Assembly (NCBI GenBank): GCA_963842085.1
Contig: CAWJET010000001.1
Location: forward strand, 2,560,001-2,624,000
DNA from: an uncultured delta proteobacterium
GTDB lineage: Bacteria; Desulfobacterota; Binatia; Binatales; Binataceae
DNA: 64,000 nucleotides
Direction: 5' to 3'
Below are positions 3,851-27,851 of the stretch, piece after piece. Below the pieces are notes generated by a model, which was given only the letters and a program-made list of their open reading frames with translations, did no database searches and was not told the DNA's origin. Each line of letters opens with the position of its first letter. Positions within the stretch are counted from its first letter, which is position 1. Both the position numbers and the translations under genes were made by a program.

Positions 3851-4093
3851 CGTCTGGTTCCTTAGAGCGTAGGGTAAGGGAAATCAGGTTACAGGGATAT
3901 GCACATGAGCCAGCTGCGCGCTTACGGTGCAAACGCCGCCGGTCGGGCTGACGGCGCTCGGATGGTGGCGATCCCGTCTTGCGTCTCGTAGATGATGTCC
4001 TGAAATGCCATCTCCGTCTCCTTCGGCCGCGTCGCATCATCTCGCCGGTTACCTCGCGCTCGAACAGGCTGCGCTCGTCTCAGCGTTAGGCGA

Positions 4094-4324
4094 TCACTCT
4101 ACGATTTCAAGAGTAACCCTGCGGTTCTTCCGCGCTGCGACCGCGGTCAGAATCGTGCGAATCGATTTTGCGGTATGGCCCTGCTTGCCGATCACCCGTC
4201 CAAGGTCTTCCTTCGCAACCCGCAGCTCGAGCACCGAGGCGGTCTCGCCCTGCGTTTCCTTCACCTCCACCGCGTCAGGATTGTTTACCAATTGTTGTGC
4301 GATGAACTGAACGAGCTCCTTCAT
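4094..4324 (-). CDS. khpA: KH-domain RNA-binding protein KhpA (UPF0109)
   Basis: 76 aa, MKELVQFIAQQLVNNPDAVEV...DLGRVIGKQGHTAKSIRTIL, with the GxxG KH motif and a GGAG RBS. Confidence 0.9.
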   Translation of the reverse strand: MKELVQFIAQQLVNNPDAVEVKETQGETASVLELRVAKEDLGRVIGKQGHTAKSIRTILTAVAARKNRRVTLEIVE

Positions 4325-4628
4325 GGGGTAACTCCGTTGAAGAAGTCGAACGAAAGTTTTTACAGGCCGCCATTACCCAGCCTAGTCTTAAGTAGGTCTT
4401 ATAGATACGTGCCTATAGTTATTACAGCCCACCTTGAATTTAGGACACTGGATTCACCCTGCAGCTGCCGCACCGATGGCGCGATCGTGCAGGCGGCGCA
4501 TGACACGCTGGTCGCGTCCAATTCGCCCGAATTCGTTGCCGCGCGTTCCGCGCTTCGGGGAAGAAAGAAAAAGCCCCAGATTGCTACGGGGCTATGTGAC
4601 CGAATCGACGATCGGTTGAAATCGATTC

Positions 4629-5324: not shown

Positions 5325-5661
5325 TAAGGAAGCCGAATTTCGCGAGCAGATGAACCAGATCCGCCGCAATCAAACGGGAAACGACGAACTCTGGATCAAC
5401 GGCGAGAACCACAGCGGCCCCTTGTTGCCGGTTGCCGCCTCGATGTTGCAGGGGGCCTGTTCGATCGTTCGTGCGCTCGCGCTCGATGTGTTCGCTGCGT
5501 TGACAACCGCGATGCTGCGGCGCTGGGTTGTCGCGCGCCCGATTGTGGTAATCCACGCATGATTTCGGGACTGGCCTCTGCGGCGAGAGCCAGCCATGAT
5601 GTCGGCGAACGCGCCCGCGACGGGCGATGATGGAACGCAGCGCTCGGAATGGAGGCAATCA

Positions 5662-5904
5662 ATGAAAAGGTTCGCGACACTTTCAATTCTCGCTGTCGCC
5701 ACGGCGCTGACAATCTCGATTCTGACCGCCCGACCGGCGGGCTGCGCGGGGTTCTCCGATCCCGAACTCAAGGCCTTCGACCAGGCCACGATTGTTTATG
5801 TCGCGACCGTGCGCAAGGACGGCAATCAGCACGCGGGGATCGTCGTGGATATTCTCGTCTTCGGCGCGTCGCTATCAGCGTGCGCGCCCCTTACCGTCCA
5901 GTAG
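5662..5904 (+). pseudogene. Truncated secreted protein, pyridoxamine-5'-phosphate-oxidase-like N-terminus
   Basis: GGAGG RBS, signal peptide MKRFATLSILAVATAL..., then IVYVATVRKDGNQ (split-barrel FMN-binding start). Similarity ends abruptly near 5830. Confidence 0.45.
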
Positions 5905-6373
5905 GAAACCAGGCTGTCGCTGGCCAGCCCTCGCTAGTCGCGCAGTCGCGCATCGAACTCAGCGGAATTAGCTCTAACCGGAGTCTGTGCGACAGGATTT
6001 GGGAGCGGCAACAACGTCTGTCGTCGAGGGAGAACATCAAAGACGGTGATTGTCGGATTCGATTCGCGCAGCACCCCATAGTCCGCTGCGATCGTCGTTA
6101 ACGTCGCGCCGGTGCTCGTCAACACGTTCGCGGTGATCCTCTGAATCGCGTATGCAGCGGACACTTTTCGATGATTAGTGAAGCTTGAAATACCCGGACT
6201 TGCCTGCTCGAAGTCGTTCGCGACGCAGTACGCCTCTGCGTAAGGGCCGCCTAGGCATCACGATGACGTGGATTAGTTATCATCGCAGCCAGCGCCGAGC
6301 CTGAGGCGGACTCGCTGGCCTCGAGCCCGATGACAAGCCGGGCCAGCGCGATGTAGTGTTACGCTAGGCCGTA

Positions 6374-9343
6374 ATGAGTGGATATCCCGCCGCTGAGAAT
6401 CCTCCCGCCGCCGGTCGCTTGCAATACCGATTTACCTCTGCGCACCAGCGGCTTCGCGAAACCGGTGCGCTGGATCGAATCATTTGTATCGGCTTGTTAA
6501 TCGGCACGATGGCGCTGGTCGGATGGGTGCGGCTGTTGCCCCACGCTCTAGGCGGCGTCGAGAGACCGGCCGCGGTCCTTGCGCGCGAAATGATCGCCGC
6601 CGAAGCCTACGGGCAACTGCCGGCTGATTCGCCGCAGCGGCGCGCCCCGATCGATCAAACGGTGCGCGCGTGGATGAGGGATCATCCCGCCGAATTCCAG
6701 AAATTGGATCACGAGATCGTCGGCCTGCTCGCTTCGGAATTTCGCTATATGGGTGACGACGGCCGCAAACACGTCTTCCTGGGTGACTATGACAGCTACC
6801 ACTGGCTGCGAATGGCCCGCAATTATCTGCAAGCGGGAACGACCTGCGATCGCATCGTAGACGGCATCTGCCGCGACACCTACACCAACGCACCGGTAGG
6901 CCGGATCAACGTCTATAACCGCTCGCTGCATATCGCTGCGATTATCACACTCAACCGCCTAATCACTCTTTTCAGGCCCGGGTTTCCGATTCCCGCCGGC
7001 TCCTTCCTGGTGCAGGCGTTGATCGGGATGCTCGGGGTCATTCCCGCCTTCGCGATAGGGCGCCGGGTCGCGGGTAATCTCGGCGGTTTCTGTGCCTCGA
7101 TCGTGCTGGGACTCAACCCGCTCTTCCTGGGACGGAGTCTTGGAAGCGACGACGACGTCTGGAATGTCGTCCTCCCGCTCTTCACGGTCTGGGCGCTGAT
7201 CGAGGCGTCGGCCGCGCCGTCATATCGCCGGCAGATCGCTTACGCGACTCTCGGCGCGGTGTTCGTCGGCCTGCACGCCGCTTCATGGAGCGGATGGCCG
7301 TTCGCCTATGGTGTCCTGATGATCGCGCTGCTCGCGAATCTGCTCTTCGAGTCGATCAAGCTGGCGCTGCGCAGAGCACGATCGGAAATTTCATCCGGAG
7401 CCGGAGTCCGACGCGCGGCTCTGGTCGTCGCGGTCTTTTGCTTTTCGGCGTGGATTACGACCTCGCTAGCAGGCGCCTCGTACTTTGCGACCGCACGACG
7501 CATTGCACGACCGGTAGCCGCCGTACTGCGGATTCATCCGGGCGGAGCGGACGTGGCTGCGGGCTCGCGTCCGAGTCCGCCCGGCGAGAGCGTGTGGCCG
7601 CGTAGTTTTTCCTTCGTCGAGGAGCTCAAGAAGGGCGACGCGACCCAGTTCGCGCTCTGGATGGGCGGGGAATGGGTGTTGTTCGCGGGCTGCCTTGGCC
7701 TGCTCCTGTTGGCCCTCCCGCACCGACGATGGAGATGGTGGGACTTCGCCTTGCTGATCGGCGCTGCCGGTCTTTATCGGTATGGGCTGACCGCCTCGCT
7801 CACAGGCGATTGGCAACTTCCGGCGCTGATCGCTGCGCCCATCGCGGTGGCTGTTCTGATCGACCTGACGCCGAATGCCCGACCTCCGCAAGAGGATCGA
7901 AGCGCGGTTTTGATTGTAACAGTCTGGTTCTGCGCAGCGCTGTATCTGAGCTTCTCGGCCGTGCGTTTCATCACGCTCCTCGCCGTGCCCTTTGCGATCG
8001 CGTTCGGTGCGATTCCCGGCCGCGCGCATCTATGGATCAGCAGGCTCATCCGTGAACGCCAGCCGCGCTACCCGGGGCCGGTGAGCGCTGCGGTCTTCGT
8101 GCTGCTAGCCGCGTGGACAATTGTGCCGGCCAAAGCCGGCTACCTGGAGGCGCGCAACTATATGCCCGACATCAACCAGGCCTGGTGGACGACGCTGGAG
8201 GACTTGTGCGAGCAAAGCCCGCCCAACGCTATCATCAACGCGGATTGGATCTATGGATACTGGATCAAGTACGCGGCGGAGCGGCGCGTCGTGGCGGACG
8301 GGGGCTCGCTCTCGACGCACATTCCGTACTGGCTCTCGCGCGCGCTGCTGGCGCCGAATGACAATCAGGCGGTAGGCGTGTTGCGGATGCTCGATTGCGG
8401 ATCGGACGCGATGCCGCAGCCGGAGGGCCAACTGGGAGCCTACGGCAAATTGATTGCGCAGGGCCTCGACCCGATAGCGGCTCAATCGATGGTGCTGGAG
8501 ATCGCGGGTCTGGACTTCGCCGCCGCCAAGGCTCGCCTGGCGCGCAGCGGGTTGGGCGAGGCGGCACAGGCCAGCGTGCTGGCTTCCACCCATTGCGACG
8601 CGCCGCCCGCGTACCTGATTCTTTCCACCAAAATGCTGCGCTTGGGGTGGTCTCAGCTCGGTAACTGGGATTGGGACTTCCGCCGCGCCTATGCTTACGA
8701 GAACGAGCGATCGATACCGGCAGCCGCCGCGGTTGATGATCTTGCCGCTCGCTTCGGGATGCAGCCGGCGGACGCGCGCACGCTCTTTCAACAGGTGCAC
8801 GGCCCGCATTCGGACGAAGACGCACAACGATTCATCGCATCGGCGCAAGCCCTCCGTGCGGGATGGATGCCATGCGGCGGTCTCACCCGCGGCGAGCTGG
8901 TTTGCACCAGTAACCTGCCGCTATCGCAGCGCCCAACCATAACCGGCCTCGTCTATCGGCCCACCGACACTACGCTGAAAATTGGTTTTCTGTCCGACCA
9001 CGGCGAGGTTCAGCCGCGGGACGAGACGCCGGCGATCGTACTGATCGCGGGCGACAAGGAGATCGTTGAGCATACAGTGGATTCGCCGACCGACCCGGAC
9101 GTGGCGGTGATGGTCGACCTGGTGCATTCTAGGGCCCTAGTCGGCCCGTCGAATCTGATCCGCTCAACCTTCACGAGGCTGGTGCTGCTCGACGGCGACT
9201 ACAGCCCGCTCTTCACCAAAGTCTATAAAGCCACAGTGATCGGAGAGACTGTAACCGCGTGGAAGATCAACTGGCCGGACCTTGAAAGATCGAGCTCGGG
9301 CCCGAACCCGAAACAACCGTCCACGCCTTCACCCGGCGCGTAA
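6374..9343 (+). CDS. STT3/AglB/PglB-family oligosaccharyltransferase (GT66), divergent
   Basis: 989 aa with a multi-TM N-half. Motifs GDYDSYHWLR, RSLGSDDDVW (DxD), FVEEL (TIxE-like), AVRF, ADWIYGYWIK..RRVVADGGS (at the WWDYG position) and RMLDCG. Confidence 0.88.
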   Translation: MSGYPAAENPPAAGRLQYRFTSAHQRLRETGALDRIICIGLLIGTMALVGWVRLLPHALGGVERPAAVLAREMIAAEAYGQLPADSPQRRAPIDQTVRAWMRDHPAEFQKLDHEIVGLLASEFRYMGDDGRKHVFLGDYDSYHWLRMARNYLQAGTTCDRIVDGICRDTYTNAPVGRINVYNRSLHIAAIITLNRLITLFRPGFPIPAGSFLVQALIGMLGVIPAFAIGRRVAGNLGGFCASIVLGLNPLFLGRSLGSDDDVWNVVLPLFTVWALIEASAAPSYRRQIAYATLGAVFVGLHAASWSGWPFAYGVLMIALLANLLFESIKLALRRARSEISSGAGVRRAALVVAVFCFSAWITTSLAGASYFATARRIARPVAAVLRIHPGGADVAAGSRPSPPGESVWPRSFSFVEELKKGDATQFALWMGGEWVLFAGCLGLLLLALPHRRWRWWDFALLIGAAGLYRYGLTASLTGDWQLPALIAAPIAVAVLIDLTPNARPPQEDRSAVLIVTVWFCAALYLSFSAVRFITLLAVPFAIAFGAIPGRAHLWISRLIRERQPRYPGPVSAAVFVLLAAWTIVPAKAGYLEARNYMPDINQAWWTTLEDLCEQSPPNAIINADWIYGYWIKYAAERRVVADGGSLSTHIPYWLSRALLAPNDNQAVGVLRMLDCGSDAMPQPEGQLGAYGKLIAQGLDPIAAQSMVLEIAGLDFAAAKARLARSGLGEAAQASVLASTHCDAPPAYLILSTKMLRLGWSQLGNWDWDFRRAYAYENERSIPAAAAVDDLAARFGMQPADARTLFQQVHGPHSDEDAQRFIASAQALRAGWMPCGGLTRGELVCTSNLPLSQRPTITGLVYRPTDTTLKIGFLSDHGEVQPRDETPAIVLIAGDKEIVEHTVDSPTDPDVAVMVDLVHSRALVGPSNLIRSTFTRLVLLDGDYSPLFTKVYKATVIGETVTAWKINWPDLERSSSGPNPKQPSTPSPGA

Positions 9344-9380
9344 GCCGCGCACGCGAAATAGCCGCGCGCCGGCATTGCGG

Positions 9381-10676
9381 TCAAGCGCCGTTCAGCAATC
9401 CCTCACAGCAGGCGATCACGGCCACAGCCGCACCCGGGGCGGCGAAGTTTCGCATGCGATTCGATGCGGCCATCCAGACCTCGCGGTCACGCAACACCGA
9501 CGTGATGTGCGCAGCGAGCTTTTCCGGCTCCCAGGCCTCTTCAGTCACCCAACGGGTTCCGGTCCGGGCGGAAAATGCGCGCGCGGTGTAAAGCTGGTGA
9601 TTGTGAGCCACGGAAGCCATCGGAACTATAAGTGCTGGAAGCCGAAGGACCGCAAGTTCGGCAAGCGTGTTCGCTCCCGCGCACGAGATCGCGAAGTCCG
9701 CCCATCGGTAGGCTTCAGCCATGTCCTCGATATAGCGCGCGGTGCGCGCCTTCACGCCGCAGGCAGCGTACTGGGCGACCACCCCCTCTGGCCCGTCAAG
9801 GCCGGCCCGATACCCGGTCTGATGCAGCACCTCCAGCGCCGGGACGCTTTGCTGAAGGAGTTCGAGCAGCCGAGGCACCCGCTCGTTGAGAAAAGCCGAG
9901 CCCAGCGAGCCGCCGGTGACCAGAATCCGCGCGGGACGACCGCCGCCCGGAGCGATGCGCACCTCGAGCGCCAGCTTTATGATCTCGCCGCGAATGGGCG
10001 TGCCGGTCACCACTGTGCGCTCAGGCGGAAACCACTTGCCTGCCTCCTCGAACGTGACGCAGATCCGGTGGACCAGCCGGCCGAGGACCCGGTTGGTGAG
10101 CCCCGGAACTGGATTGGACTCGTGAACCACCGTGCGCAGGCCCAGCGAGCGCGCTGCCAGCAGGGTACCCGCGCAGGCGTAACCGCCGAAGCCGATCGCA
10201 AGCTCGATCCGTTCGGCCCTCAAGATCGCCCGCGCGCGAACGAAGCCGGAGCCGAGATTCGCCAGAGCGCGCGCCTTTCCCGAGATTCGCTCACGCAGCA
10301 TCGGAGAGGCCGCGATCGGTGCGAACCGGTATCCGCTCCGGCTGGCGGCCTGCGACTCGAGACTGCATTCGCGTCCGAAGATCAGGATCTGCGCGCGATC
10401 GCTCGCCGCGGCGTAGTTCTCGGCGAGCGCAAGTCCCGGGTAGGTGTGGCCGGCAGTGCCACCGACCGTGATTGCGATACGCCGAGGGCGGGCGACTCCG
10501 GACGAAGCGTGGTTGCGGTCGGCTCCGTTCGACGCGTGGGACACGCCGTAGCGGTGCGGCGAGTTCTCTGCGAACGACACCGCGCCGGACTGCCGCGCAG
10601 TCAGGGCACCACGCTGATCCTGAACGGAAACGTTACTCACGAAAGAAGACCGCGCCACCACGCGATCCGCGCGCAC
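9381..10676 (-). CDS. MurG-like GT28 UDP-GlcNAc:lipid-PP-sugar transferase paralog (true start possibly GTG at 10544)
   Basis: GGTAGH, GFGGY, HESNPVPGLTNR, TGTPIR, GGSLGS, HQTG, AYRWADFAISCAGANTLAEL. It lies outside any dcw cluster. Confidence 0.88.
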   Translation of the reverse strand: MRADRVVARSSFVSNVSVQDQRGALTARQSGAVSFAENSPHRYGVSHASNGADRNHASSGVARPRRIAITVGGTAGHTYPGLALAENYAAASDRAQILIFGRECSLESQAASRSGYRFAPIAASPMLRERISGKARALANLGSGFVRARAILRAERIELAIGFGGYACAGTLLAARSLGLRTVVHESNPVPGLTNRVLGRLVHRICVTFEEAGKWFPPERTVVTGTPIRGEIIKLALEVRIAPGGGRPARILVTGGSLGSAFLNERVPRLLELLQQSVPALEVLHQTGYRAGLDGPEGVVAQYAACGVKARTARYIEDMAEAYRWADFAISCAGANTLAELAVLRLPALIVPMASVAHNHQLYTARAFSARTGTRWVTEEAWEPEKLAAHITSVLRDREVWMAASNRMRNFAAPGAAVAVIACCEGLLNGA

Positions 10677-10822
10677 TCATCGCCGCACCCCATCTCCAAA
10701 ATCTCTCCCCCTCGCCGCCCACAATCCAAATCGAATCAAGGTTTTCTTTAGCAATAGAAACATATTGGAGCAATGAAACGGATTAGTGTTTTTCCCCAGA
10801 AGTTTCGATAGTCGTTAGGTTT

Positions 10823-11749
10823 CTAGCGCAATCGGTGCGGGCTGTTCCCGGGACCATACAGATAGCCCATCAGCTCGCCGGCGGCATGGAAGTGCAGAAT
10901 CACGACGATTAGCGGAAAGCTCTTTAAGGCCTGCCACCGATAAGCCGGCTTGCGGACGACCATCCGTGCAGCGATCCGCAGGCTGTCTTTAGCGACTCGC
11001 AGAGGCATCAAGAGGGCGCGCAAAACGTGGTATATGCACTGTGCGCGACCTAACTTGGCTTGGGCAAAGCCGGCACTGGTGCGACCGTCGTGATAGTGGA
11101 TTAGACAATTACCTAGCGCACCAAGCGGCAGCACGTGGACGACCACGAGGCGATCGTCGCTAATCAGGATTCGGCCAGAACCACGCAGGTCCCTCGTGTA
11201 ATCGCTCTCTACGACACCGTGGGGAGGCAGATCCTCGGGCAACGCCCAGCGCTTATACGAAATGTTAGCCTGACCGGCGATGGTGGGGCGCTCTCCGTTT
11301 GGTATAGGGGGCAGAAAGGCACCGCCGGAGATGAAGAAACTCGCTCGATCCCACAGACTGTCGACGGCGCCATTGTCAACCACGCCACCTATCACGGCCG
11401 CCTGAGGATTCTCCCGATGCGCGCGCAGCACCTGCTCGCACCAATCTGGCGCCACCCGGCAATGGTCTTCAGTGACGGCAACAACCTCGCCGCGGGCTTC
11501 GGCGAGACCGATAGCGCGTAATTGAAACACGGTGTCGCCGGGCCGGCGCAGCCATCGAACGCCTGCGTAACCGTGATTCTCGCACAAGCCCTGGCCGTGT
11601 CCATCGACCACGACTAGCTCCGCTCCCAGAGCCCGCGTCTGGGCATATACCGAATCCAAGACACCGCGCATCTCCAGCCATGGCTGGCTGGTGGCTATGA
11701 CTACAGACAGAGGAGGAACACACTCGGCGAGCGACCTATCATCCTGCAA
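10823..11749 (-). CDS. Family 2 glycosyltransferase
   Basis: LSVVIAT...ELVVVDG...LRAIGLAEARGEVVAVTEDHCRVAPDW (GT-A fold, EDH variant of DxD), with a hydrophobic C-terminus. Confidence 0.8.
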   Translation of the reverse strand: MQDDRSLAECVPPLSVVIATSQPWLEMRGVLDSVYAQTRALGAELVVVDGHGQGLCENHGYAGVRWLRRPGDTVFQLRAIGLAEARGEVVAVTEDHCRVAPDWCEQVLRAHRENPQAAVIGGVVDNGAVDSLWDRASFFISGGAFLPPIPNGERPTIAGQANISYKRWALPEDLPPHGVVESDYTRDLRGSGRILISDDRLVVVHVLPLGALGNCLIHYHDGRTSAGFAQAKLGRAQCIYHVLRALLMPLRVAKDSLRIAARMVVRKPAYRWQALKSFPLIVVILHFHAAGELMGYLYGPGNSPHRLR

Positions 11750-11929
11750 AGACCGCTCCTCTCACGGTTCGATTATTTGTCGGGGCTTCCGTTTGAATCT
11801 CCGATTCCAACTGGCCGTATAGACCGAACGGCCTTCCTCTGCAAGGCGTGCAGCCGGGTTTTAGTCCACTCTGTTTCCAGCGGCACCGCATAGGGCCGGT
11901 TTCGCGGCAGGCGTGCAAACAACGCGCGG

Positions 11930-11958
11930 TTGACACAACCGCCTGCGGACTCTATCAA
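11930..11958 (+). promoter_or_regulatory. Candidate sigma70 promoter for the ALG1-ALG2-ABC operon
   Basis: TTGACA (11930-11935), 17 nt spacer, TATCAA (11953-11958), ending ~60 nt upstream of ATG 12018. Confidence 0.55.
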
Positions 11959-12017
11959 CGTACAGTCAGCGAAACAGGCGTAGTTTTTTTCCCGCCTGAA
12001 GTCGCCGCCCCATCCGT

Positions 12018-13256
12018 ATGCGAGTAGTGATTGTCGTCCTCGGGGATTTCGGCCAAAGTCCCCGCATGCAGTATCACGCTCTGGCGTTAGCCGATTCGGG
12101 CAGAGATGTAGAGGTTATTGCATATACCGGCTCTGCGCCGTTTCGGGCGGTCAGTGAAAATCCGCGGATCACGATTCATCTGACGTACGCTCCGATCGCT
12201 GCCACGCGCCATTTGCCGGGGTTACTGTTCGTGGCCTGGCAATTCATGCGGCTCTGCGGTCAGGGTCTGGGCCTGCTGTGGAACCTTCTGCTGACCGTCG
12301 GCAAGCCTGACGTAGTACTGGTGCAGAATCCCCCAGCCGTCCCAACCTTGCTGATCGCGCTGGTCGCCGCGCGCCTTCGATCGGCGCGGCTCGTAATCGA
12401 CTGGCATAACTTCAGCCATGCGATGCTCGCGCTCAGGCTGGGATCGGATCACTATGCGGTGCGAATGTTGCGATGGCACGAGCGCGCGGTCGGGCGCCGC
12501 GCCGACGCGCATCTGTGCGTCTCGCGCGCGATGCAGTCCGAGCTTCGCGCGCACTGGCAGATTCCCGGCGCTGTCGTCCTGTACGATCGTCCCGCTGAAA
12601 TGTTCACGCCGACGCCGCCGGAGGCGCAGCCCGCGGTGCTCCGCCGCGTCCTGGCGGGCGTCGCTTCCGCCCAGGACGACGGCCGGCGGCCCGCGATTGT
12701 CGTATGCCCTACGAGCTGGACTTCGGATGAAGACATTTCGATTCTGATTCGGGCCGCGGCGCGCTGCGATGAAATGGTCCGAACCGGCAAGAGCTTCGCT
12801 GAACTGCTGATTCTTATCACCGGCCGTGGCGCGCTGCGCGATCAACACGAGGAGGAGATCCGGAAGTTGACGCTGCGAAGAATCCATCTGCACACGCTGT
12901 GGCTTGCGGCCGAAGATTACGCGCTATTGCTGGGCTGCGCCGACCTCGGCGTCTCGTGTCACAGGTCGGCCTCGGGAATCGACCTGCCGATGAAGATCGC
13001 GGATCTGTTCGGCGCGGGAGTGCCGGTCTGCGCGCTGGACTACGGTCCCGTTCTCGCCGAACAGGTGCGCCACGGCGCCAATGGCCTCCTGTTCGCCGAC
13101 GCCGAACAGCTAGCCACGCAGCTCTACGAATTGTTCGAGGGCTTTCCCGTCCATACGCCGCTGCTGGATCGCCTGCGTGACCAGGTCCGCGGCCAGCCCC
13201 GGATTTCCTGGCGCGACGGATGGAATACCGAGGCAGCTCATGTCTTTGCGGATTGA
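12018..13256 (+). CDS. ALG1-like chitobiosyl-PP-lipid beta-1,4-mannosyltransferase (GT33)
   Basis: VVLGDFGQSPRMQYHALALA, QNPPAVPT, IDWHNF, TSWTSDED, ITGRG, WLAAEDYALLLGCADLGV, SASGIDLPMKIADLFG. These correspond to eukaryotic ALG1 signature blocks. Confidence 0.9.
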   Translation: MRVVIVVLGDFGQSPRMQYHALALADSGRDVEVIAYTGSAPFRAVSENPRITIHLTYAPIAATRHLPGLLFVAWQFMRLCGQGLGLLWNLLLTVGKPDVVLVQNPPAVPTLLIALVAARLRSARLVIDWHNFSHAMLALRLGSDHYAVRMLRWHERAVGRRADAHLCVSRAMQSELRAHWQIPGAVVLYDRPAEMFTPTPPEAQPAVLRRVLAGVASAQDDGRRPAIVVCPTSWTSDEDISILIRAAARCDEMVRTGKSFAELLILITGRGALRDQHEEEIRKLTLRRIHLHTLWLAAEDYALLLGCADLGVSCHRSASGIDLPMKIADLFGAGVPVCALDYGPVLAEQVRHGANGLLFADAEQLATQLYELFEGFPVHTPLLDRLRDQVRGQPRISWRDGWNTEAAHVFAD

Positions 13257-13274
13257 CCGTCGCGACGGACCGTC

Positions 13275-14489
13275 ATGAGACAATCGCTGCGGATCGGTTT
13301 CGTCCATCCCCAGCTAGGCGTCGGAGGTGCCGAACGCCTGGTGCTCGACGCCGCAAGCTGTCTTCAGCAGGCTGGCCATCGCGTTACGATTTTCACCTCG
13401 CGTCACAATCGCGACCATAGTCTTGACGACGCGCGTCACGGCGCGGTCGAGGTCCGCACTTACGGGGACTTCCTGCCGCTTGACATCGCCGACCGCATGC
13501 TGGCGCCATTTAATGTTGGCCGGACCTGCTACGCCGCTTTCCGCCTGGCGATGAGCCGCGAGCACTTCGACGTGATCTTCACCGACCTGGTGTCACAATC
13601 GATTCCGATACTGCGGCTGATGACGCGGGCCAAAATCATCTTCTACTGTCATTTCCCCGACCGGTTGCTCGCTCCGCAACGCGGCGGTCTCTACCGCTGG
13701 TACCGCATCCCCATCGACTGGTCGGAACGAGTCGCCATCGGCATGGCGCATCTAGTGATCGCCAACAGCAGATTCACGGCCTCGATAATCGGTCGCACTT
13801 TCCCGCGGCTCGGCCCGCCACAGCTGCTCTATCCCGGGGTTGACGTCGCGAGCTTCGCGAGCAACGGCCGAATCGCTCACGACGACTCGATCATGCTGCT
13901 TGCGATCAACCGCTACGATCGCCGCAAGAACACCGGCCTCGCGATCGAGGCGCTGGCCGGGCTCGAGGCGCGGCTGCCGACCGAAATCTTCCGCCGCGTG
14001 CAACTGGTGATTGCCGGCGGCTTCGACGACCGCAGCCGCCAGAACCACGAAGTCCTGCGCGAGCTGCAAGTGCTGGCAAACCGGCCTGCTCTGACCGGCA
14101 AAGTGGTCTTTCTGCGCTCGCCCGACGACCGGCAGATTCAAGAGCTTCTTTCGCGCTGTCGATGCGTGGTTTATACCTCGGAGTATGAGCATTTCGGCTA
14201 CGTACCGTTGGAGGCTATGGCCGCCGCGCGGCCGGTGATATCGGTGAACACCGGCGGTCCGGCGGAGACGATTGTGGATGGCACCACCGGCCTGCTCTGC
14301 TCGGCCAGGCCGGCGGCTTTTGCCGACGCTCTCGCCGGCTTGGTGGCGGACCCCGACGGTGGCGATCGACTGGGCCGGGCCGGCCGGGCGCACGTGGCCG
14401 CAAAATTCTCGAAAGCGGTCTTCGGCGCGCAACTCGAACAGATCGTCGAGGAAGCGGTTGGCAACTCCCGTAATTCAGGACTTGAATAG
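13275..14489 (+). CDS. ALG2-like alpha-1,3/1,6-mannosyltransferase (GT4)
   Basis: FVHPQLGVGGAERLVLDAA, FYCHFPDRLL, YRIPIDWSE, INRYDRRKN, IAGGFDDR, EHFGYVPLEAM, VNTGGPAET. These correspond to eukaryotic ALG2 signature blocks. Confidence 0.9.
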   Translation: MRQSLRIGFVHPQLGVGGAERLVLDAASCLQQAGHRVTIFTSRHNRDHSLDDARHGAVEVRTYGDFLPLDIADRMLAPFNVGRTCYAAFRLAMSREHFDVIFTDLVSQSIPILRLMTRAKIIFYCHFPDRLLAPQRGGLYRWYRIPIDWSERVAIGMAHLVIANSRFTASIIGRTFPRLGPPQLLYPGVDVASFASNGRIAHDDSIMLLAINRYDRRKNTGLAIEALAGLEARLPTEIFRRVQLVIAGGFDDRSRQNHEVLRELQVLANRPALTGKVVFLRSPDDRQIQELLSRCRCVVYTSEYEHFGYVPLEAMAAARPVISVNTGGPAETIVDGTTGLLCSARPAAFADALAGLVADPDGGDRLGRAGRAHVAAKFSKAVFGAQLEQIVEEAVGNSRNSGLE

Positions 14490-16335
14490 CCGCGCATCAC
14501 ACGGTCGGAGCTCCCGCTTCCCAGCCATCCGAGTTTTGGCCAGCTGCTTCGCGATGCTTCCCGGCGCAATCCGATGGCGCTGGGCGATACTCGCGCCGAT
14601 TGCATTCCTGCGCGGCACGCTCGAGGCCATAGCGGCCGGGGCGGTGTTCGCGCTGATCAAGATCATCAGCGATCCGCCCGCGATCGCTCACCTGCCAGTC
14701 GTCTCAAGGGTCGCATCGATGCTGCCCTGGCGCGGCGCCCCGGCCCAGATCGTCGCGCTGACCGGACTGGTCGCGCTTTTTTACCTGTTCAAGAACCTGT
14801 TTGCCCTCGGCATGGAATACTTCACCCACAAGGTCGTGGGTGAATCGGTGTTGGCGCTCAAAAGTACGATGATGAGGGGCTATCTCGCGATGCCCTACCC
14901 GTTTTATCTGCGCCGCAACTCCGCGGATCTGATCTGGAACGTCGACGCCGCGGTGAACCGGGTCTGCGAAGAAGGAATGTTGCCGGCGGTCGCCGTGGTG
15001 TCGGAAGTTCTGGCCGCTGCGAGCATCGCCGCGGTGCTGGTGTACACCGCGCCAAAGATTACCCTGATCGCCGGATGCCTGCTGGGCGGCGGACTCGCCT
15101 TGCTGCTGCGACTCACGCGCGCGATGGCGCATCGCTATGGATCCGAGAGGGACCGGCTGTCACGCGGCATTCTGCGCGATCTCCAGCAAGCCTTCGGCGG
15201 AGTCAAGGAGATCAAGGTGCTCGGCCGCGAACAGTTTTTTGTCGGGGCGCTCGAGCAGAAACTGCGCGGCATCCTCAAACTCGGATACCTCGCCAAAACC
15301 CTCGAGACCAGCGCGCCGTTGTTCACTGAGACCCTGTTCGTGGGCGGGGCGCTGGTCGTGATCGCGCTGCTGAGCGCAAGGGGCGCGGTCCGCAGCGAAG
15401 GGCTGCCGCTGCTGGCGCTGTTCTCCTATGCCGCGTTCCGGATCGTTCCGTCCGTCAACCGGATCGGGTGGCGGATCAATCAGATCCGCGGCGTGGCGGT
15501 ATCGGCCAGCAATCTCTACGACGACTATCTGCTCATAGCCGGTGTCGAGCGCGGCAACGCCGACGTTGATGACGGTCATGCAGTGATGCTCCACAGCGCA
15601 ATCGAATTCGAGCGCGTTTCGTTTACGTACCCGGAGGCCGGGCAATCGGCGCTGCATGAGATCTCGCTTACGATTCGCCGCGGCGAATCAATCGGCGTCG
15701 TGGGACCTACTGGCGCGGGCAAGAGCACGTTCGCCGACCTCCTGGTGGGATTGCTCACTCCCTCCTCGGGCCTCGTTCTGATCGACGGCCGAGACCTGTC
15801 TGATCGGCGGTTGGCCTGGAAGCATCGGATCGGCTACGTGCCGCAATCAATCTTTCTCCTCGACGACAGCCTGACCCGCAACATTGCGTTTGGCTTTGCC
15901 GACGCCGAGATCAAGCTTGACCGCGTGCGCGCCGTGGTCCGAATGGTGCAACTCGATCAGTTGGTCGCCACGCTGCCGGCGGGCCTCGACACCGTGGTCG
16001 GTGAGCGCGGCGTTCGCTTCTCCGGCGGCGAACGGCAACGCGTCGGGATCGCCCGCGCGCTCTATCACGATCCCGACCTGCTGGTATTCGATGAGGCCAC
16101 CTCCGCCCTCGACCAGGCCACCGAGGCCGACGTGACGAACGCGATTGAGACGCTGCAAGGCCGCAAGACAATGCTGGTCATCGCCCATCGCCTGGCTACG
16201 GTAAAGCATTGCGATCGGCTGGTCTTCATCGCCGACGGACGGATCCGCGCGTGCGGCAGCTACGATGAATTGATGCGCGACGTCGACGAATTCCGCCGAA
16301 TGGCGGCGGCAGGCGAAACGCGCTCGGCAGGCTGA
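14482..16335 (+). CDS. ABC exporter (fused TMD+NBD), PglK/WlaB-like lipid-linked-oligosaccharide flippase; start uncertain (14482 or 14554)
   Basis: TM half with YLAMPYPFYLRRNSADL, Walker A GPTGAGKST, FSGGERQRVGIARALYHDP, VFDEATSALD and IAHRL. It lies inside a GT operon. Confidence 0.85.
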   Translation: MNSRASHGRSSRFPAIRVLASCFAMLPGAIRWRWAILAPIAFLRGTLEAIAAGAVFALIKIISDPPAIAHLPVVSRVASMLPWRGAPAQIVALTGLVALFYLFKNLFALGMEYFTHKVVGESVLALKSTMMRGYLAMPYPFYLRRNSADLIWNVDAAVNRVCEEGMLPAVAVVSEVLAAASIAAVLVYTAPKITLIAGCLLGGGLALLLRLTRAMAHRYGSERDRLSRGILRDLQQAFGGVKEIKVLGREQFFVGALEQKLRGILKLGYLAKTLETSAPLFTETLFVGGALVVIALLSARGAVRSEGLPLLALFSYAAFRIVPSVNRIGWRINQIRGVAVSASNLYDDYLLIAGVERGNADVDDGHAVMLHSAIEFERVSFTYPEAGQSALHEISLTIRRGESIGVVGPTGAGKSTFADLLVGLLTPSSGLVLIDGRDLSDRRLAWKHRIGYVPQSIFLLDDSLTRNIAFGFADAEIKLDRVRAVVRMVQLDQLVATLPAGLDTVVGERGVRFSGGERQRVGIARALYHDPDLLVFDEATSALDQATEADVTNAIETLQGRKTMLVIAHRLATVKHCDRLVFIADGRIRACGSYDELMRDVDEFRRMAAAGETRSAG

Positions 16336-16347
16336 GCAAGCGAAGCG

Positions 16348-17192
16348 ATGGATTTTGGATCTTCGTTAAGTTGGCGCCGTTACTCGCGCGGACTCGGTTC
16401 GAACGCGAAGACCTGGCCCGCTGGCCCGACGCATTCGCTGAGCGCCAGCGTTGTCCCAGCCGAGGTTGGCTCCCACGTCGATACATACGCCGCCACTGAG
16501 ATCCAACAAGCGGAACAGCGCGAGCAACTCGGGCTCCCAGGTTCGGATCAGGAATAGGGTGCTACCGATCGCGACGTCGCGCAAGTCAATCCGGAGGCGA
16601 AAATGATCGGCGGCGATAACCGCCCGCGGGTAAATACGCCGGCGGAAAGGGGTGATCCAATGTCGCCGAGCGATCGGCGCTGGGAGAGCGAAAAGAGACC
16701 ACCTGGCTGTGGCTTAATTCACACAACTGGGGAGACAACCGGATCGTGTCGGAACGCAAAGCTGGCGAACAATATGAGTCAGTAGCAGTCAAAGTGGGCG
16801 ACGAGATCCTGTCGGCGCTGCCGGCCGGCGCGATCAAGCTGGTGAAGGTCGACGCGCAGGGCTACGACCTGTTCGTGGTGAAAGGTTTACGCGACTCGCT
16901 GATGCGCAGTCCCGACGCGGTCCTGGCCGTGGAAGTCGCGCCAGGGCACTTACGTGAAGCGGGCACCTGCCCGGGCGCGTTCGTCGCATACCTGGTCGAG
17001 CAGGGTTTCCGCGGCTGGGAGCTACACCCTCATCGCGCATTTCCGGTCCTTGCACCCCAAGACTACGAACTCAGCGACGACGGCGGGGAAACGAACCTGG
17101 TGTTGTCTCGCCGGCCAGAAGCGCTCGCCCGCGCGATTGGCAGGATGTTTCCCGGCTTGACCGGATCTTCAGCTCCGCGCATCGAGCGCTAG
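16348..17192 (+). pseudogene. FkbM-family methyltransferase disrupted by an internal inversion/deletion
   Basis: The C-half on + reads LWLNSHNWGDNRIV..IKLVKVDAQGYDLFVVKG. The N-half on - (~16380-16705) reads WEPE..CIDVGANLGW then, after a 1-nt shift, TTLALSECVGPAGQVFAFEP. Confidence 0.8.
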
Positions 17193-18118
17193 CCCCGCTC
17201 TGCGGCCTTCGGCGCAATGCGGTTTGGCTCCGGCCTTGACAGTCGCTGCCTGGCCAGGCCGAGGTACAGTTTCGCCAACAGCCGCATTCGCTGCGCGAAG
17301 GGAACAATCGGGACATCGCCCAGGATCTCATCCCGCAAGTCCCACCAATCCGCCCAAAGATCATGGAATATGGGATGGGCCGTCGGGAGCAAACGGTAAG
17401 CGTCCTCGGGCCGCCAAAACCAGGGCTTACCCAGGTGGCTGAAGTGAACCAGCATCGCCATCCGCCGAGCGCGCTCGGCATCTCCGAAGTAAAACGGACC
17501 GGTGGCGGAGCACCACTCCGAATTCAAACAGCCATACTCGTCGGCGAGGAAATGAATCTCATCGTCGAACTCCAGATTGATGATATTCATGTCATACAGG
17601 CGCTTCTCAAAGGCGGAAGCGAAGTGCCGTTGAACCCGATCCCAATTGCCCATTGATGGGGTTACGACCAGCAACAGGCTGGTCGCCTTAAACTGTCGCG
17701 TCCAGTAGGCGCGCGGAGCCGCGATGGTCTGCGCAAAAGGCAAGGTGAAAAGATGGTCGAGATTCTGGAGCGGAAGTGAGTCCGAGTCGATGAAGACCAC
17801 CCGCTCGTACTCCACGAGCTGAAAAATCCGCAGCTTGGTAAGACAATCGCGGTAGTACTTGCCGCGGGTGAACCGCAGCGGTTCCACCTCTCTTAGAATG
17901 AAGTTCGCGTGGCGGGCCCTGGTTACCATGGCCGGCGACACGCCGTGGTAGATGAAGACGAACCCGATATCGCGGCCGGCGCCAGTTCTGCGCAGCGCCG
18001 TCGCGGCAATGATCGCGCCTGCGGCGTACGCGTCGTCGGTCGCATAAAAGACGTATGCAAACCGGTTCACGGCCGCTCGTGATCCGCCTAATTCCTCACT
18101 CGTGCTCAAGGTCTGCAC
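17189..18118 (-). CDS. Family 8 glycosyltransferase (glycogenin-like, resembling fungal GNT1)
   Basis: FAYVFYATDDAY, TKLRIFQLVEYERVVFIDSD, NLDHLF, AAPRAYW, YDMNIIN, VHFSHLGKPW. Confidence 0.85.
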   Translation of the reverse strand: MQTLSTSEELGGSRAAVNRFAYVFYATDDAYAAGAIIAATALRRTGAGRDIGFVFIYHGVSPAMVTRARHANFILREVEPLRFTRGKYYRDCLTKLRIFQLVEYERVVFIDSDSLPLQNLDHLFTLPFAQTIAAPRAYWTRQFKATSLLLVVTPSMGNWDRVQRHFASAFEKRLYDMNIINLEFDDEIHFLADEYGCLNSEWCSATGPFYFGDAERARRMAMLVHFSHLGKPWFWRPEDAYRLLPTAHPIFHDLWADWWDLRDEILGDVPIVPFAQRMRLLAKLYLGLARQRLSRPEPNRIAPKAAERG

Positions 18119-25643: not shown

Positions 25644-27851
25644 TTGCCCGAACAGAACCCGATCAGAGTTGCGGTTATCGGCGGTGGGTGCGCCGCGATT
25701 GCGGCAGCTTTCGAGTTAAGCCGTCCCGCACACAAAGGCAAATACCAGGTAACCATTTATCAGCTCGGTTGGCGGCTAGGAGGGAAAGGAGCTTCGGGCC
25801 GCGGCCCGGCGGATCGAATAGAAGAGCACGGCCTCCATCTGTGGATGGGATCCTATGAGAATGCATTTCGGCTGATACGCGAGTGCTATGCGGAACTCAA
25901 GCGGGATCGAACTAAGTGCAGAATCGCGGACTGGCGCGATGCATTTTCTCCGGCGCCTTTCATTGGCCTGGCGGAGCGAGCACGCGACGGCTCCTATTGG
26001 AACTTTCTTTCGTACTTTCCGCCGGGGGATGGTCTTCCGGGCGATCCCCTTAGCGAAAATGATCCTTTCACTGTAACGTCCTATCTAGCGCGCACCGCCA
26101 GCATACTGCGTACGCTGCTGCTTGCCGTGCAAGCGGGGCGGAGCAGTAGGAGTGCGCCGAACGTAGGGCGCGGAACCTCGAATAGCCAGCGCTCCCATAA
26201 GTCAGGTCTTAACGCGGGCGAAGTATCCGGCGATCCTTCCCAGCGTGTCGCGCGTCTCCTCGGTCTGGGCGGGATTGCGACCACGGCCGGACTTATCGAG
26301 GCCGTCGAAATGCTCGAGATGTTGTTCGCGCCGCGCTCGAGCTACCCGGCTAATGGAATCGTGCAGCTCCTTGACCTGATCGCGGCTAGCGCCCGCCGCC
26401 AACTCGAGGCTTTGATCGAGAACGATCCCGAGCTGCTGGTGCTATGGCAGGGAATCGATCTGGCGATGGCATCGATGCGGGGAATTCTTCGCTTCGGACT
26501 GGTTTCAGACCCGCGGGGTTTCGACGCGATCAACGATTACGACTTTCGCGAATGGCTGCGAATCAACGGCGCGTCGGAGCGCTCGATCGAGTCACCCTTT
26601 ATCCGCGGCGCATACGATCTGGTGTTCGCGTACGAAGATGGAGACTATCAGCAACCGAAACACGGGGCAGGCGTTGCGCTGCGCGGCGCATTGCGCATGC
26701 TGTTCAGCTCGCGCGGCGCGATCTTCTGGAGAATGAACGCCGGCATGGGAGATACGGTCTTCGCGCCCATGTACGAGGTGCTTAAGAAGCGCGGAGTCGT
26801 CTTCAGATTTTTCCATCGCCTGGAGAGAGTAAGACTCGCGGATCCCGCCGACCTTGCCGAGGGTGAGCGCGCTTACGTCAAGGCGTTGGAATTCGACGTG
26901 CAGGCCAAGGTCAAGGAGGGAAAGGAGTATGCGCCGTTGATTGATGTGGGCGGGCTGCCATGCTGGCCGTCGAAGCCGGATTGGTCGCAACTGATTGACG
27001 GGCGCAGGTTCGACCGCGAAGGGTGGGACTTCGAATCGCATTGGGACAAGAGAAAAGCCGGTACCGAGGTATTGCGCGTGATCGATGATTTCGATTTCGT
27101 CGTGCTAGGTGTCGGGCTGGGAGCTATTCCATACGTATGCCAGGACTTTATCGAGCGCGATCAGCGATGGTCCGACATGGTTACGCATTTGAAGACCGTT
27201 AATACACAGGCGTTTCAGATCTGGCTGCGCGATGACATGGAACAACTGGGATGGAATGATCCTCCGCTAGCCCTGTCGGCGTTCGTGCAGCCATTTGAAA
27301 CCTGGGCCGACATGAGCCACTTGATAGGAGAGGAAGGATGGAAGGTCCGGCCGGGAGCTATTGCGTACTTCTGCAGCGCGCTGAAGGACCCTGTCTCGCC
27401 GCGAGCAACATCGGATGCCAGTTACGCCAAGCGACGACGGCAGGAAGTTCGCGAAAAGGCGATTCGCTATCTTAATAATGACATCGTACAGCTATGGCCT
27501 AAGGCGGTAAGGCGTCGCGGCGAATTCAGGTGGGATATATTGATGGACCCAAAAGAGAAGGCGCCTGGTCGTCAAGCGCGTGGCAAGAATGAGGCGCGCT
27601 TCGATTCTCAGCATTGGACGGCAAACGTGAATCCGAGCGACCGGTACGTCCTTTCGCTGCCAGGGACGCAGAAGTACCGCATCTCGCCACTGGACAACAC
27701 CTACGACAATCTGACAATAGCTGGTGATTGGACGACGTGCGGGTTGGATGCGGGATGCGTTGAAGCGGCAGTGATTTCCGGCCGGTTGGCGGCACACGCG
27801 ATTGCATCTTCGCCGCCGCTCGAAGATATAGTCGCGTATGACCATCCTTGA
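25644..27851 (+). CDS. FAD/NAD(P)-binding oxidoreductase of the phytoene-desaturase/HpnE superfamily
   Basis: VIGGGCAAIAAAFEL, RLGGKGASGR, EEHGLHLWMGSYENAF, C-terminal AGDWT..GCVEAAVISGRLAA. AGGAG RBS before TTG 25644. Confidence 0.82.
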   Translation: MPEQNPIRVAVIGGGCAAIAAAFELSRPAHKGKYQVTIYQLGWRLGGKGASGRGPADRIEEHGLHLWMGSYENAFRLIRECYAELKRDRTKCRIADWRDAFSPAPFIGLAERARDGSYWNFLSYFPPGDGLPGDPLSENDPFTVTSYLARTASILRTLLLAVQAGRSSRSAPNVGRGTSNSQRSHKSGLNAGEVSGDPSQRVARLLGLGGIATTAGLIEAVEMLEMLFAPRSSYPANGIVQLLDLIAASARRQLEALIENDPELLVLWQGIDLAMASMRGILRFGLVSDPRGFDAINDYDFREWLRINGASERSIESPFIRGAYDLVFAYEDGDYQQPKHGAGVALRGALRMLFSSRGAIFWRMNAGMGDTVFAPMYEVLKKRGVVFRFFHRLERVRLADPADLAEGERAYVKALEFDVQAKVKEGKEYAPLIDVGGLPCWPSKPDWSQLIDGRRFDREGWDFESHWDKRKAGTEVLRVIDDFDFVVLGVGLGAIPYVCQDFIERDQRWSDMVTHLKTVNTQAFQIWLRDDMEQLGWNDPPLALSAFVQPFETWADMSHLIGEEGWKVRPGAIAYFCSALKDPVSPRATSDASYAKRRRQEVREKAIRYLNNDIVQLWPKAVRRRGEFRWDILMDPKEKAPGRQARGKNEARFDSQHWTANVNPSDRYVLSLPGTQKYRISPLDNTYDNLTIAGDWTTCGLDAGCVEAAVISGRLAAHAIASSPPLEDIVAYDHP

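Follow-up and report, generated by a model that had tools for sequence, protein, structure and literature searches.

A candidate N-glycosylation-type gene cluster with ALG1- and ALG2-like genes in a Binatales genome

In eukaryotes, ALG1 (GT33) and ALG2 (GT4) are mannosyltransferases of the cytosolic face of the endoplasmic reticulum (ER), and a bacterial genome with two adjacent genes that resemble them raises the question of whether these are genuine members of the two families, where they came from, and what they might do. The genes lie in a 64,000-nucleotide stretch of DNA, here called the window, which comprises positions 2,560,001 to 2,624,000 of a 3.24-Mb contig (CAWJET010000001.1) from an uncultured bacterium of the order Binatales (assembly GCA_963842085.1); all further coordinates are counted from the first nucleotide of the window. 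With a probability of roughly 0.6, we conclude that the pair belongs to the bacterial branch of the ALG1 and ALG2 families and lies within a gene cluster of protein N-glycosylation type that has a eukaryote-type glycan core. The core idea of functional bacterial ALG1 and ALG2 proteins is already public in a 2025 preprint, and the cluster context is the part added here. The neighborhood, with an STT3-family gene, a MurG paralog and a candidate flippase, is a stronger signal than the gene pair itself.

The ALG1-like gene (positions 12018 to 13256, plus strand) encodes a 412-amino-acid candidate β-1,4-mannosyltransferase of the GT33 type, a placement that draws on kinship with eukaryotic ALG1, signature blocks, and trees. 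The ALG2-like gene (13275 to 14489, plus strand) encodes a 404-amino-acid candidate α-1,3/α-1,6-mannosyltransferase of family GT4, identified from generic GT4 Pfam domains, JGI names of homologs, and its G-loop and EX7E motifs. The open reading frames (ORFs) are separated by an 18-bp spacer (13257 to 13274), and this gap, the pathway order of the genes and the coordinates of both ORFs agree with a first-pass annotation made from the sequence alone. All 10 of the motif blocks quoted in that annotation were likewise found in the translations: the ALG1-like protein contains LGDFGQSPRMQYHA, QNPP, IDWHN, TSWTSDED, and SGIDLPMK, and the ALG2-like protein contains HPQLGVGGAERLVLDAA, FYCHFPD, INRYDRRKN, AGGFDDR, and EHFGYVPLEAM. 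The GC content resembles that of the neighbors, as had been claimed, at 0.637 over 12 to 14 kb versus 0.617 to 0.647 in the adjacent 8 to 16 kb. The reported lack of an N-terminal transmembrane anchor in the ALG1-like protein also held, since a crude hydropathy analysis placed the first hydrophobic segment no earlier than residue 99. The protein begins 7 residues ahead of its first signature block. In several rows of the eukaryote clan described below, the alignment begins only at residues 39 to 73 of the eukaryote-clan protein, opposite query residues 2 to 3, indicating an N-terminal extension in those proteins that the ALG1-like protein does not have; such an anchor is a feature of localization and not of catalysis. 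The annotation had further placed the pair behind a promoter. The string itself is there, TTGACA at 11930 to 11935 and TATCAA at 11953 to 11958 with a 17-nucleotide spacing (11930 to 11958, plus strand, upstream of the ALG1-like gene), but its status as a promoter was not borne out. A consensus scan of 6000 to 21500 returned 4 promoter-like sites versus 3.6 ± 1.8 in shuffled sequence, and the string is not among them, because TATCAA lacks the final T. It carries no weight as promoter evidence.

Family membership was examined with the ALG1-like protein as the query against 1.84 billion representative sequences, among which 996 proteins matched at an E value of 1e-30 or lower and the best 150 were taken. 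Exact-sequence look-up was applied to 20 of these 150, which comprised 10 eukaryotic proteins, 1 from a metagenome-assembled genome (MAG) of the Gammaproteobacteria, 1 with a JGI function name only, and 8 without names. The eukaryotic proteins came from Globisporangium, Piptocephalis, Anaeramoeba, Chloropicon, Pneumocystis, Blyttiomyces, Ramazzottius, Mesostigma, Cyanophora, and one eukprot transcript, and all 10 aligned with the ALG1-like protein over its full length at 39 to 50% identity, with E values of 1e-77 to 1e-99. For comparison of the signature blocks, 18 eukaryote-clan rows were used, of which 10 are named eukaryotes. The core residues of the five ALG1 blocks were the same in 16 to 18 of these 18, as they were in bacterial rows representing four other lineages, and S-P-R, DWHN, TSWT, and D-L-P were each identical in every one of the 18. 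The five blocks were also invariant across 18 bacterial homologs. Among the nearest clusters of the ALG1-like protein in a protein-language-model atlas were clusters of eukaryotic chitobiosyldiphosphodolichol β-mannosyltransferase. JGI names describe homologs of the ALG1-like protein as β-1,4-mannosyltransferase and those of the ALG2-like protein as α-1,3/α-1,6-mannosyltransferase, and homologs with 84 to 92% identity carry the names Candidatus Binatus or Binatales. From this kinship, the predicted activity of the ALG1-like protein would be β-1,4-mannosyl transfer from GDP-mannose (GDP-Man) to a lipid diphosphate carrying two N-acetylglucosamine (GlcNAc) residues (GlcNAc2-PP-lipid).

The pair could in principle consist of ordinary GT4 enzymes from an exopolysaccharide (EPS) or lipopolysaccharide cluster with a superficial likeness to ALG1 and ALG2, an outcome the first-pass annotation had itself raised, or of eukaryotic contamination or an assembly chimera. 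In favor of the first of these, Pfam and NCBIfam returned generic GT4 and GT1 families for both proteins and no family specific to ALG1 or ALG2. The nearest NCBIfam model to the ALG1-like protein was WcaI (E value, 2e-8), and the ALG2-like protein gave weak generic GT4 matches. A sequence search of the Protein Data Bank (PDB) found no match for the ALG1-like protein, and for the ALG2-like protein it found generic GT4 enzymes only. Since no ALG1- or ALG2-specific family was returned by these databases at all, the generic names are not counterevidence, and the full-length matches to eukaryotic ALG1 with their common signature blocks speak against a merely superficial likeness.

The ALG2-like protein is a candidate whose placement draws on JGI homolog names, on two motifs, and on the ALG2 tree of the preprint mentioned above (Xu et al., bioRxiv, October 2025, 10.1101/2025.10.15.682550). 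The main text of that preprint describes bacterial ALG2 homologs with GIGGAER and EHFGIVPLE that make Man3GlcNAc2, where Man is mannose; both motifs were essential by mutagenesis, and the valine matters. The counterparts in the ALG2-like protein are a GVGGAER G-loop and an EX7E motif that reads EHFGYVPLE, in which the valine is kept.

The integrity of the assembly bears on the remaining part of this alternative. The genome consists of 2 contigs totaling 4.93 Mb, with 100% completeness and 1.07% contamination, and a chimeric origin is contradicted by the length of the contig, by a gene order that recurs in independent assemblies, and by soil contigs that bridge the gene junctions. No RNA run was among the sequencing runs listed for this DNA. 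Seven soil DNA runs from two studies contain 74 to 90% of the sampled words, and short contigs from four soil DNA runs, again from two studies, cover 28 to 30 of 30 bins per run in the 11-kb stretch from 6000 to 17000. They bridge the junctions between the STT3 and MurG-like genes, between ALG1 and ALG2, and between ALG2 and the ABC gene; no listed contig spans the whole stretch from 6000 to 17000. Loose contig ends are concentrated between genes upstream of ALG1, at 11.79 to 11.99 kb. They count in favor of a chimera, but they fit strain variation and not chimerism, and the order GT2-ALG1-ALG2-ABC, including the GT2-ALG1 junction, is the same in three related loci (L008, L009, and L010). Together with the matching GC content and the recurrence of the wider module in more than 20 assemblies, these observations already contradict the ordinary-enzyme and chimera explanations, which we regard as very improbable.

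The origin of the genes was addressed with trees of the ALG1 family. The first-pass annotation had offered either an old eukaryote-to-bacterium transfer or a prokaryotic sister lineage, and the trees favor a prokaryotic sister or ancestral lineage. A FastTree phylogeny was computed from 161 rows, consisting of 140 of the 150 representatives (10 were dropped by a 370- to 620-amino-acid length filter), the window protein, and 20 labeled bacterial loci. It contained a 65-row clan with a support of 99 that held all ten named eukaryotes, none of the 21 window and labeled-locus rows, and not the gammaproteobacterial protein. A second phylogeny was computed with IQ-TREE under LG+C20+F+G4 from 58 hand-picked rows, 18 from the eukaryote clan and 40 bacterial. 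The 18 rows again formed one clan, with a Shimodaira-Hasegawa-like approximate likelihood ratio (SH-aLRT) of 99 in the quick run and an ultrafast bootstrap (UFBoot) of 100 and SH-aLRT of 99 in the careful run. In the IQ-TREE analysis the clan attached beside an unnamed protein (P0033) that is 55 to 57% identical to the ALG1-like protein, near the Binatus clade, unlike in the FastTree phylogeny, where its nearest neighbor was the group with the gammaproteobacterial protein. Of all branches in the ALG1 tree, that of the gammaproteobacterial protein (P0347, MDH5324852.1) is the longest, at 1.8. With no bacterial row nested inside the single eukaryote clan, a transfer from a crown eukaryote is excluded and the bacterial genes are not a recent import. 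Bacterial ALG1 is a deep, multiphylum radiation outside the eukaryotic clan, and therefore a sister or ancestral lineage of eukaryotic ALG1.

An older transfer, from a stem eukaryote that preceded the last eukaryotic common ancestor, followed by horizontal spread among soil bacteria, is improbable in our view. It would account for the rarity and patchiness of bacterial ALG1, which was found as 216 candidate stretches in 185,579 species genomes, in 17 of the 121 genomes of the class, in 2 of 6 of the genus, and in 3 of 151 in a sample of the phylum. It also accords with a statement in the published survey of Lombard (2016, PMC4973528) that ALG1 is universal in eukaryotes. The trees are unrooted and their bacterial backbone is unresolved, so that they do not by themselves settle the direction of an ancient transfer. 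Against a stem-eukaryote donor, midpoint rooting of the FastTree phylogeny and of the quick IQ-TREE phylogeny put the root among bacteria each time, and the bacterial sequences diverge at least as deeply as the eukaryotic ones. The ALG1/ALG2 pair, moreover, has cluster partners of bacterial type (a fused MurG, a WecA-like enzyme, and an ABC exporter) and not Alg13/14 or Rft1. The main text of Xu et al. also argues for a bacterial origin and reports that no archaeal ALG1 was reliable; it names no archaeal ALG2 that was active either. A bacterial sister or ancestral lineage is the preferred account.

The cluster around the pair extends over about 15 kb (6.4 to 21.2 kb) and contains, in order, genes for an STT3-family protein, a MurG paralog, a GT2 glycosyltransferase, ALG1, ALG2, an ABC (ATP-binding cassette) exporter, a GT8 glycosyltransferase, a GT4 glycosyltransferase, and a methyltransferase-GT4 fusion. 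It thus holds an oligosaccharyltransferase-like gene, an ABC exporter, and 7 glycosyltransferases. The STT3-family gene (6374 to 9343, plus strand) encodes an oligosaccharyltransferase-like membrane protein of 989 amino acids with a PF02516 score of 93.4 bits (cut-off, 24.5). The genome yielded no second STT3 match, and this gene is 2.7 kb upstream of ALG1. Between residues 36 and 586 the protein has 9 or more hydrophobic segments, followed by a soluble tail of about 400 amino acids. A profile of 17 STT3 relatives matched 15 PDB sequences, 14 of them titled oligosaccharyltransferases (AglB, PglB, STT3, and STT3A, with yeast and human enzymes represented) and one a putative uncharacterized protein (3vu1). 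In the alignment of these 17 sequences, for which L015 stood in for L014 with its stop in the reading frame, the acidic residues D140 (LGDYDSY), D259 (SDxDVWN), and E417 (VxEL) were invariant and D261 nearly so. D140 and E417 are putative catalytic residues, assigned by motif position. The SDNDVWN stretch aligned with NDHHIWE of Archaeoglobus fulgidus AglB, which, in the structural account available (PMC7226087), holds the metal-binding residues D161 and H163.

The MurG paralog (9381 to 10676, minus strand; GT28 with fused N- and C-terminal domains, PF03033 and PF04101) is a candidate for the transferase that adds the second GlcNAc, a step done in eukaryotes by Alg13/14. It scored 230 bits with TIGR01133, below the cut-off of 250, and is 29% identical to the canonical MurG, which scored 277 bits and whose gene lies near mraY on contig 2. 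The ABC exporter half-transporter (14554 to 16335, plus strand; PF00664 and PF00005) is MsbA/PglK-like and a candidate flippase for lipid-linked oligosaccharides. Its longest ORF begins at 14272, inside ALG2, and 14554 is the first in-frame ATG past the ALG2 stop. Its NCBIfam scores were 266 bits with MsbA and 243 bits with PglK, both below the cut-off.

These genes suggest a likely function in building a lipid-linked Man3GlcNAc2-type glycan, flipping it, and transferring it to protein, with every step derived from homology and gene linkage. A phosphotransferase of the WecA/MraY family would form GlcNAc-PP-polyprenol; in this genome such an enzyme is encoded elsewhere, in an EPS locus, and in Rokubacteria, Myxococcota, and many Binatia-type genomes the candidate initiating gene is inside the cluster. 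The MurG paralog would then add the second GlcNAc, and the ALG1-like protein would add the β-1,4-mannose. The GT2, GT8, GT4, and methyltransferase-GT4 proteins may provide lineage-specific decoration of the glycan. The MsbA/PglK-like exporter would flip the product to the periplasmic face, where the STT3-family enzyme would transfer it to asparagine residues of exported proteins. As the lipid carrier, a bacterial polyprenol would presumably take the place of dolichol.

The module recurs in Binatia-type genomes, and its distribution was surveyed by scanning one genome per prokaryotic species (185,579 in all); the best 80 of the 216 loci with an ALG1 relative were used, many of them cut by contig ends. 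Genes were called by tblastn with the window proteins (E < 1e-10) and by a hidden Markov model of STT3 relatives. The MurG paralog was present in 35 of the 80 loci, all 35 of them among the 40 loci not labeled Acidobacteriota. The corresponding counts were 31 of 80 and 27 of 40 for the ABC exporter, 29 of 80 and 27 of 40 for the ALG2-like gene, and 29 of 80 and 29 of 40 for STT3. ALG2 lay directly 3′ of ALG1 in 21 of the 80 loci, and in 26 the MurG paralog was divergent and within 700 bp of the ALG1 start. WecA-like homologs occurred within 15 of the 80 loci, directly upstream of ALG1 in Myxococcota and beside STT3 in several Binatia-type loci. The consecutive accessions of the gammaproteobacterial ALG1 homolog (P0347, MDH5324852.1) and of GaALG2 (MDH5324851.1) from the main text of the preprint suggest that ALG1 and ALG2 are neighbors in that MAG as well.

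In the Rokubacteria/Methylomirabilota, 7 of 8 loci (L025, L028, L031, L032, L035, L036, and L085) had a different STT3 gene close to ALG1. In L028 this gene (11217 to 13469 of that locus, plus strand) lies directly downstream of ALG1, contains PF02516 and an AglB core domain, and matches the archaeal AglB model TIGR04154 at 458.9 bits (cut-off, 450). On the other side of ALG1 are a MurG paralog and then a WecA-like gene (TIGR02380, 114.6 bits, below the cut-off). The Rokubacteria arrangement has the appearance of a bacterial ALG1/ALG2 cluster that has taken up an archaeal transferase, and the STT3 lineages linked to the ALG1 core are thus two, unrelated to each other.

Within the class Binatia, 121 genomes yielded ALG1 in 17 and STT3 in 16; both were present in 15, ALG1 alone in 2, STT3 alone in 1, and neither was found in 103. 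Where both were present, they were often on one contig and a few kilobases apart. The cluster was found in 2 of 6 genomes of the genus, and in the 151-genome phylum sample ALG1 occurred in 3, all of the Binatia class. The cluster is therefore accessory and patchy, at no more than 2 of 6 genomes of the genus and 3 of 151 in the phylum sample.

The main alternative for function is that the lipid-linked glycan goes to a nonprotein acceptor, such as an envelope polysaccharide, a glycolipid, or an EPS, and that the STT3 protein is inactive or has another role, with no N-glycosylation taking place. A number of observations favor it or otherwise weigh against the N-glycosylation reading, and the most direct concern the STT3 protein of the window. 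The sequon-binding motif WWDYG reads DWIYG here (8243 to 8257, residues 624 to 628; the codons were checked), within DWIYGYW. Of the 17 aligned STT3 sequences, 16 keep the WWD aspartate and the window copy alone replaces it; WWD as such is present in 11 and the second Trp in all. WWDYG is a feature of the STT3 family and not of the window copy. The same DWIYG letters were also found in soil-run contigs from two studies. Close relatives have NWDYG, QWDYG, or WWDYG and distant ones mostly WWDYG, with the first Trp variable even within the genus. According to the structural account cited above (PMC7226087), the WWD aspartate helps to bind the +2 Ser/Thr of the sequon, so the window STT3 may be altered in acceptor specificity, decaying, or inactive. 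The C-terminal STT3/PglB/AglB core domain PF21436, present in most of the listed homologs, scored 22.2 bits here, under the cut-off of 23, and in several relatives the STT3 frames are split or contain an internal TGA.

A further set of observations on that side concerns the partners. No initiating phosphotransferase was found within the window, and the nearest homolog is about 940 kb away in a locus of the EPS type. The genome has two PF00953 genes besides mraY, and this homolog, in a Wza/Wzc-type locus, is one of them. The locus (L091, contig 1, 1,614,000 to 1,633,999) contains a non-MraY, WecA-like gene for a 638-amino-acid protein whose C-terminal half matches EPS sugar-transferase models, as well as four GT4s, a GT2, and a methyltransferase. 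The MurG paralog of the window resembles solved MurG (E value, 4e-43), with no Alg13 chain among its PDB matches at an E value of 0.001 or lower.

Distribution provides the third set. All 40 Acidobacteriota loci have ALG1 without STT3 or the MurG paralog, and 38 of the 40 are without ALG2. In a search of five genomes outside the Binatia type, STT3 had no match in the Polyangia genome, the Betaproteobacteria genome, and one Acidobacteriota genome; a second Acidobacteriota genome gave a Pfam match below the cut-off only, and the Rokubacteria genome has an STT3 gene. ALG1 without STT3 in Acidobacteriota and other genomes indicates that the ALG1 family is not coupled to protein glycosylation in every lineage. 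Because related genomes do not count as independent cases, the co-occurrence figures overstate the support they give. The attachment of the eukaryote clan among the bacteria is weakly supported (89/64, 67/64, and 32/55) and differs between methods. Finally, the main text of the preprint describes DeALG1 and MeALG1 as inactive and MeALG2 without reported activity (10.1101/2025.10.15.682550), so that homology is no guarantee of activity. The Acidobacteriota genes themselves show 43 to 48% identity. In one of these loci (L073) the gene is flanked by those for an NDH2-like oxidoreductase and a LysR regulator, with a histidine kinase also nearby.

We nevertheless consider a nonprotein acceptor unlikely, although it is the most serious of the rival explanations. 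The window STT3 retains all three acidic catalytic motifs, 15 of the 18 class genomes with ALG1 or STT3 contain both, and two unrelated STT3 lineages are each linked to ALG1. To our knowledge, enzymes of the STT3 family are known only as protein N-glycosylating enzymes, which we count against this explanation as well. The assembly of a Man3GlcNAc2-type glycan for transfer to protein remains the function we prefer.

That function has counterparts in several known systems. The likeness to eukaryotic ALG1 and ALG2 lies in the sequence identity of the ALG1 proteins, the signature blocks, the ALG2 motifs, and the order of ALG1 and then ALG2. The window pair differs in being intron-free, 18 bp apart, and part of an operon-like array, and in an ALG1-like protein without the N-terminal anchor. 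There is also no ALG11-like partner here, the other GT4 of the cluster being of the prokaryotic type. In the Campylobacter pgl locus, the PglB oligosaccharyltransferase and the PglK ABC flippase are encoded with the transferases PglC, PglA, PglJ, PglH, and PglI, and the cluster shares with it an STT3-family transferase, an ABC flippase candidate, and cytoplasmic glycosyltransferases that work on a glycan linked to polyprenol-PP. Among the window proteins there were matches to the NCBIfam models for PglK and PglJ. The glycan core predicted here is GlcNAc2Man3, in contrast to the bacillosamine-based heptasaccharide of Campylobacter, and no aminotransferase, dehydratase, or acetyltransferase domain, as would mark bacillosamine synthesis genes of the PglD/E/F type, was found among the scanned ORFs at 6.4 to 21.2 kb. 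The STT3 is also divergent, at about 990 amino acids and with weak profile matches to solved AglB (E value, 1e-6) and PglB (E value, 1e-5), and the initiating enzyme would be of the WecA/MraY family.

An engineered Escherichia coli pathway makes Man3GlcNAc2 with host WecA, yeast Alg13/14, Alg1, and Alg2, and PglB. Its parts list is in logic that of the Binatia system, with initiation of the WecA type, a transferase for the second GlcNAc, ALG1 and ALG2, a flippase, and an oligosaccharyltransferase of one subunit. That pathway is synthetic, and the Binatia cluster would be its natural counterpart composed entirely of bacterial genes. In Archaea, N-glycosylation with a chitobiose core involves AglB and the MurG-like Agl24, as described by Meyer et al. 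(2022, PMC8993221). The features in common with that description are a fused MurG-like enzyme proposed to make GlcNAc2-PP-lipid and, in Rokubacteria, an archaeal-type AglB, and the differences are the presence of ALG1 and ALG2 and the bacterial host.

The closest published work is the preprint of Xu et al. The earlier survey of Lombard (2016, PMC4973528), in its treatment of Alg1, found no prokaryotic relatives and raised the possibility that the gene arose within eukaryotes. Using BLAST, Xu et al. collected 204 bacterial ALG1 homologs, according to their main text (10.1101/2025.10.15.682550). Homologs from Gammaproteobacteria, Polyangia, and Binatia complemented yeast alg1-delta and made Man-GlcNAc2 in vitro, and the Binatia homolog (BiALG1) made Man-GlcNAc2-PP-phytanyl. 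The proteins described there (GaALG1/2, PoALG1/2, BiALG1, DeALG1/2, and MeALG1/2) belong to the same families as those considered here, come from Binatia, Methylomirabilota, Polyangia, and "Deltaproteobacteria," and have the same G-loop and EX7E motifs. The enzymes are treated singly in that text, with a tree for ALG2 only, and the present analysis adds a conserved cluster and an ALG1 tree. The terms "operon," "gene cluster," "STT3," and "PglB" are absent from its main text. Among the sources covered, which included few subscription journals, we found no published account of an ALG1/ALG2 cluster with an oligosaccharyltransferase or of glycosylation in Binatota.

The other genes of the cluster are more variable. 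The GT2 glycosyltransferase (10823 to 11749, minus strand; PF00535) is a lineage-specific insert between the MurG paralog and ALG1, found in 3 of the 80 loci, all of them the close relatives L008, L009, and L010. The GT8 glycosyltransferase (17189 to 18118, minus strand; PF01501), a candidate tailoring enzyme, was found in 1 of the 80. The prokaryotic-type GT4 glycosyltransferase (18106 to 19323, minus strand; PF00534) has a homolog in 17 of the 80. It was considered as a counterpart of ALG11 and dropped, its nearest atlas clusters containing only bacterial and archaeal GT4s. The methyltransferase-GT4 fusion (19320 to 21200, minus strand) is a protein of 626 amino acids with PF08241/PF13489 and PF00534.

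Several features of the flanks were also recorded. A tRNA-Thr gene (TGT; 23887 to 23962, plus strand) lies 2.7 kb past the end of the cluster, and the GC content of the cluster, 0.62 to 0.65, is slightly above the 0.57 to 0.59 of the immediate flanks. Together with the patchy distribution in the genus, the tRNA gene and the GC step hint at an island. No island borders were drawn, as the flank matches in five same-genus genomes scatter over different contigs, even in the cluster-bearing genome. On the left flank, stretches at about 3960 to 4340 and 5510 to 5840 have 80 to 94% identity to several contigs of same-genus genomes, above that of neighboring genes, and may be repeats or mobile-element remnants; no ORF of 180 amino acids or more was found at 1.7 to 5.1 kb. 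To the right, a run of plus-strand genes (25590 to 31868) encodes a flavin amine-oxidase-like protein of 753 amino acids, a family-less ORF of 247 amino acids, a polyprenyl synthetase (PF00348, 197 bits), and a family-less ORF of 737 amino acids. The run may represent an isoprenoid or pigment pathway, and a link to the carrier lipid of the glycan would be speculative.

The cluster context suggests a bacterial role for ALG1 and ALG2 through their linkage to an oligosaccharyltransferase, a flippase, a candidate enzyme for chitobiose formation, and, in other genomes, an initiating enzyme. In logic, this operon-like cluster has every part of the eukaryotic pathway's cytosolic half. Should it be confirmed, it would provide eukaryote-core N-glycans from a natural source in bacteria, which is of interest for glycoengineering, a concrete candidate for the donor pathway in models of eukaryogenesis, and two independent pairings of ALG1 with different STT3 lineages that can be compared. 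A broader proposal, which we put forward tentatively and hold to be rather doubtful, is that some soil bacteria of the Binatia and Rokubacteria/Methylomirabilota naturally run N-glycosylation on a eukaryotic Man3GlcNAc2 core with an operon-encoded set of a WecA-like enzyme, the MurG paralog, ALG1, ALG2, the ABC exporter, and STT3/AglB. If that is true, the bacterial module would be a surviving relative of the donor of the mannosylation half of the proto-eukaryote's dolichol pathway, and the Rokubacteria, in which bacterial ALG1 and ALG2 are paired with AglB of the archaeal type, would show in a living organism the bacterial-archaeal mosaic that is also seen in the eukaryotic ER.

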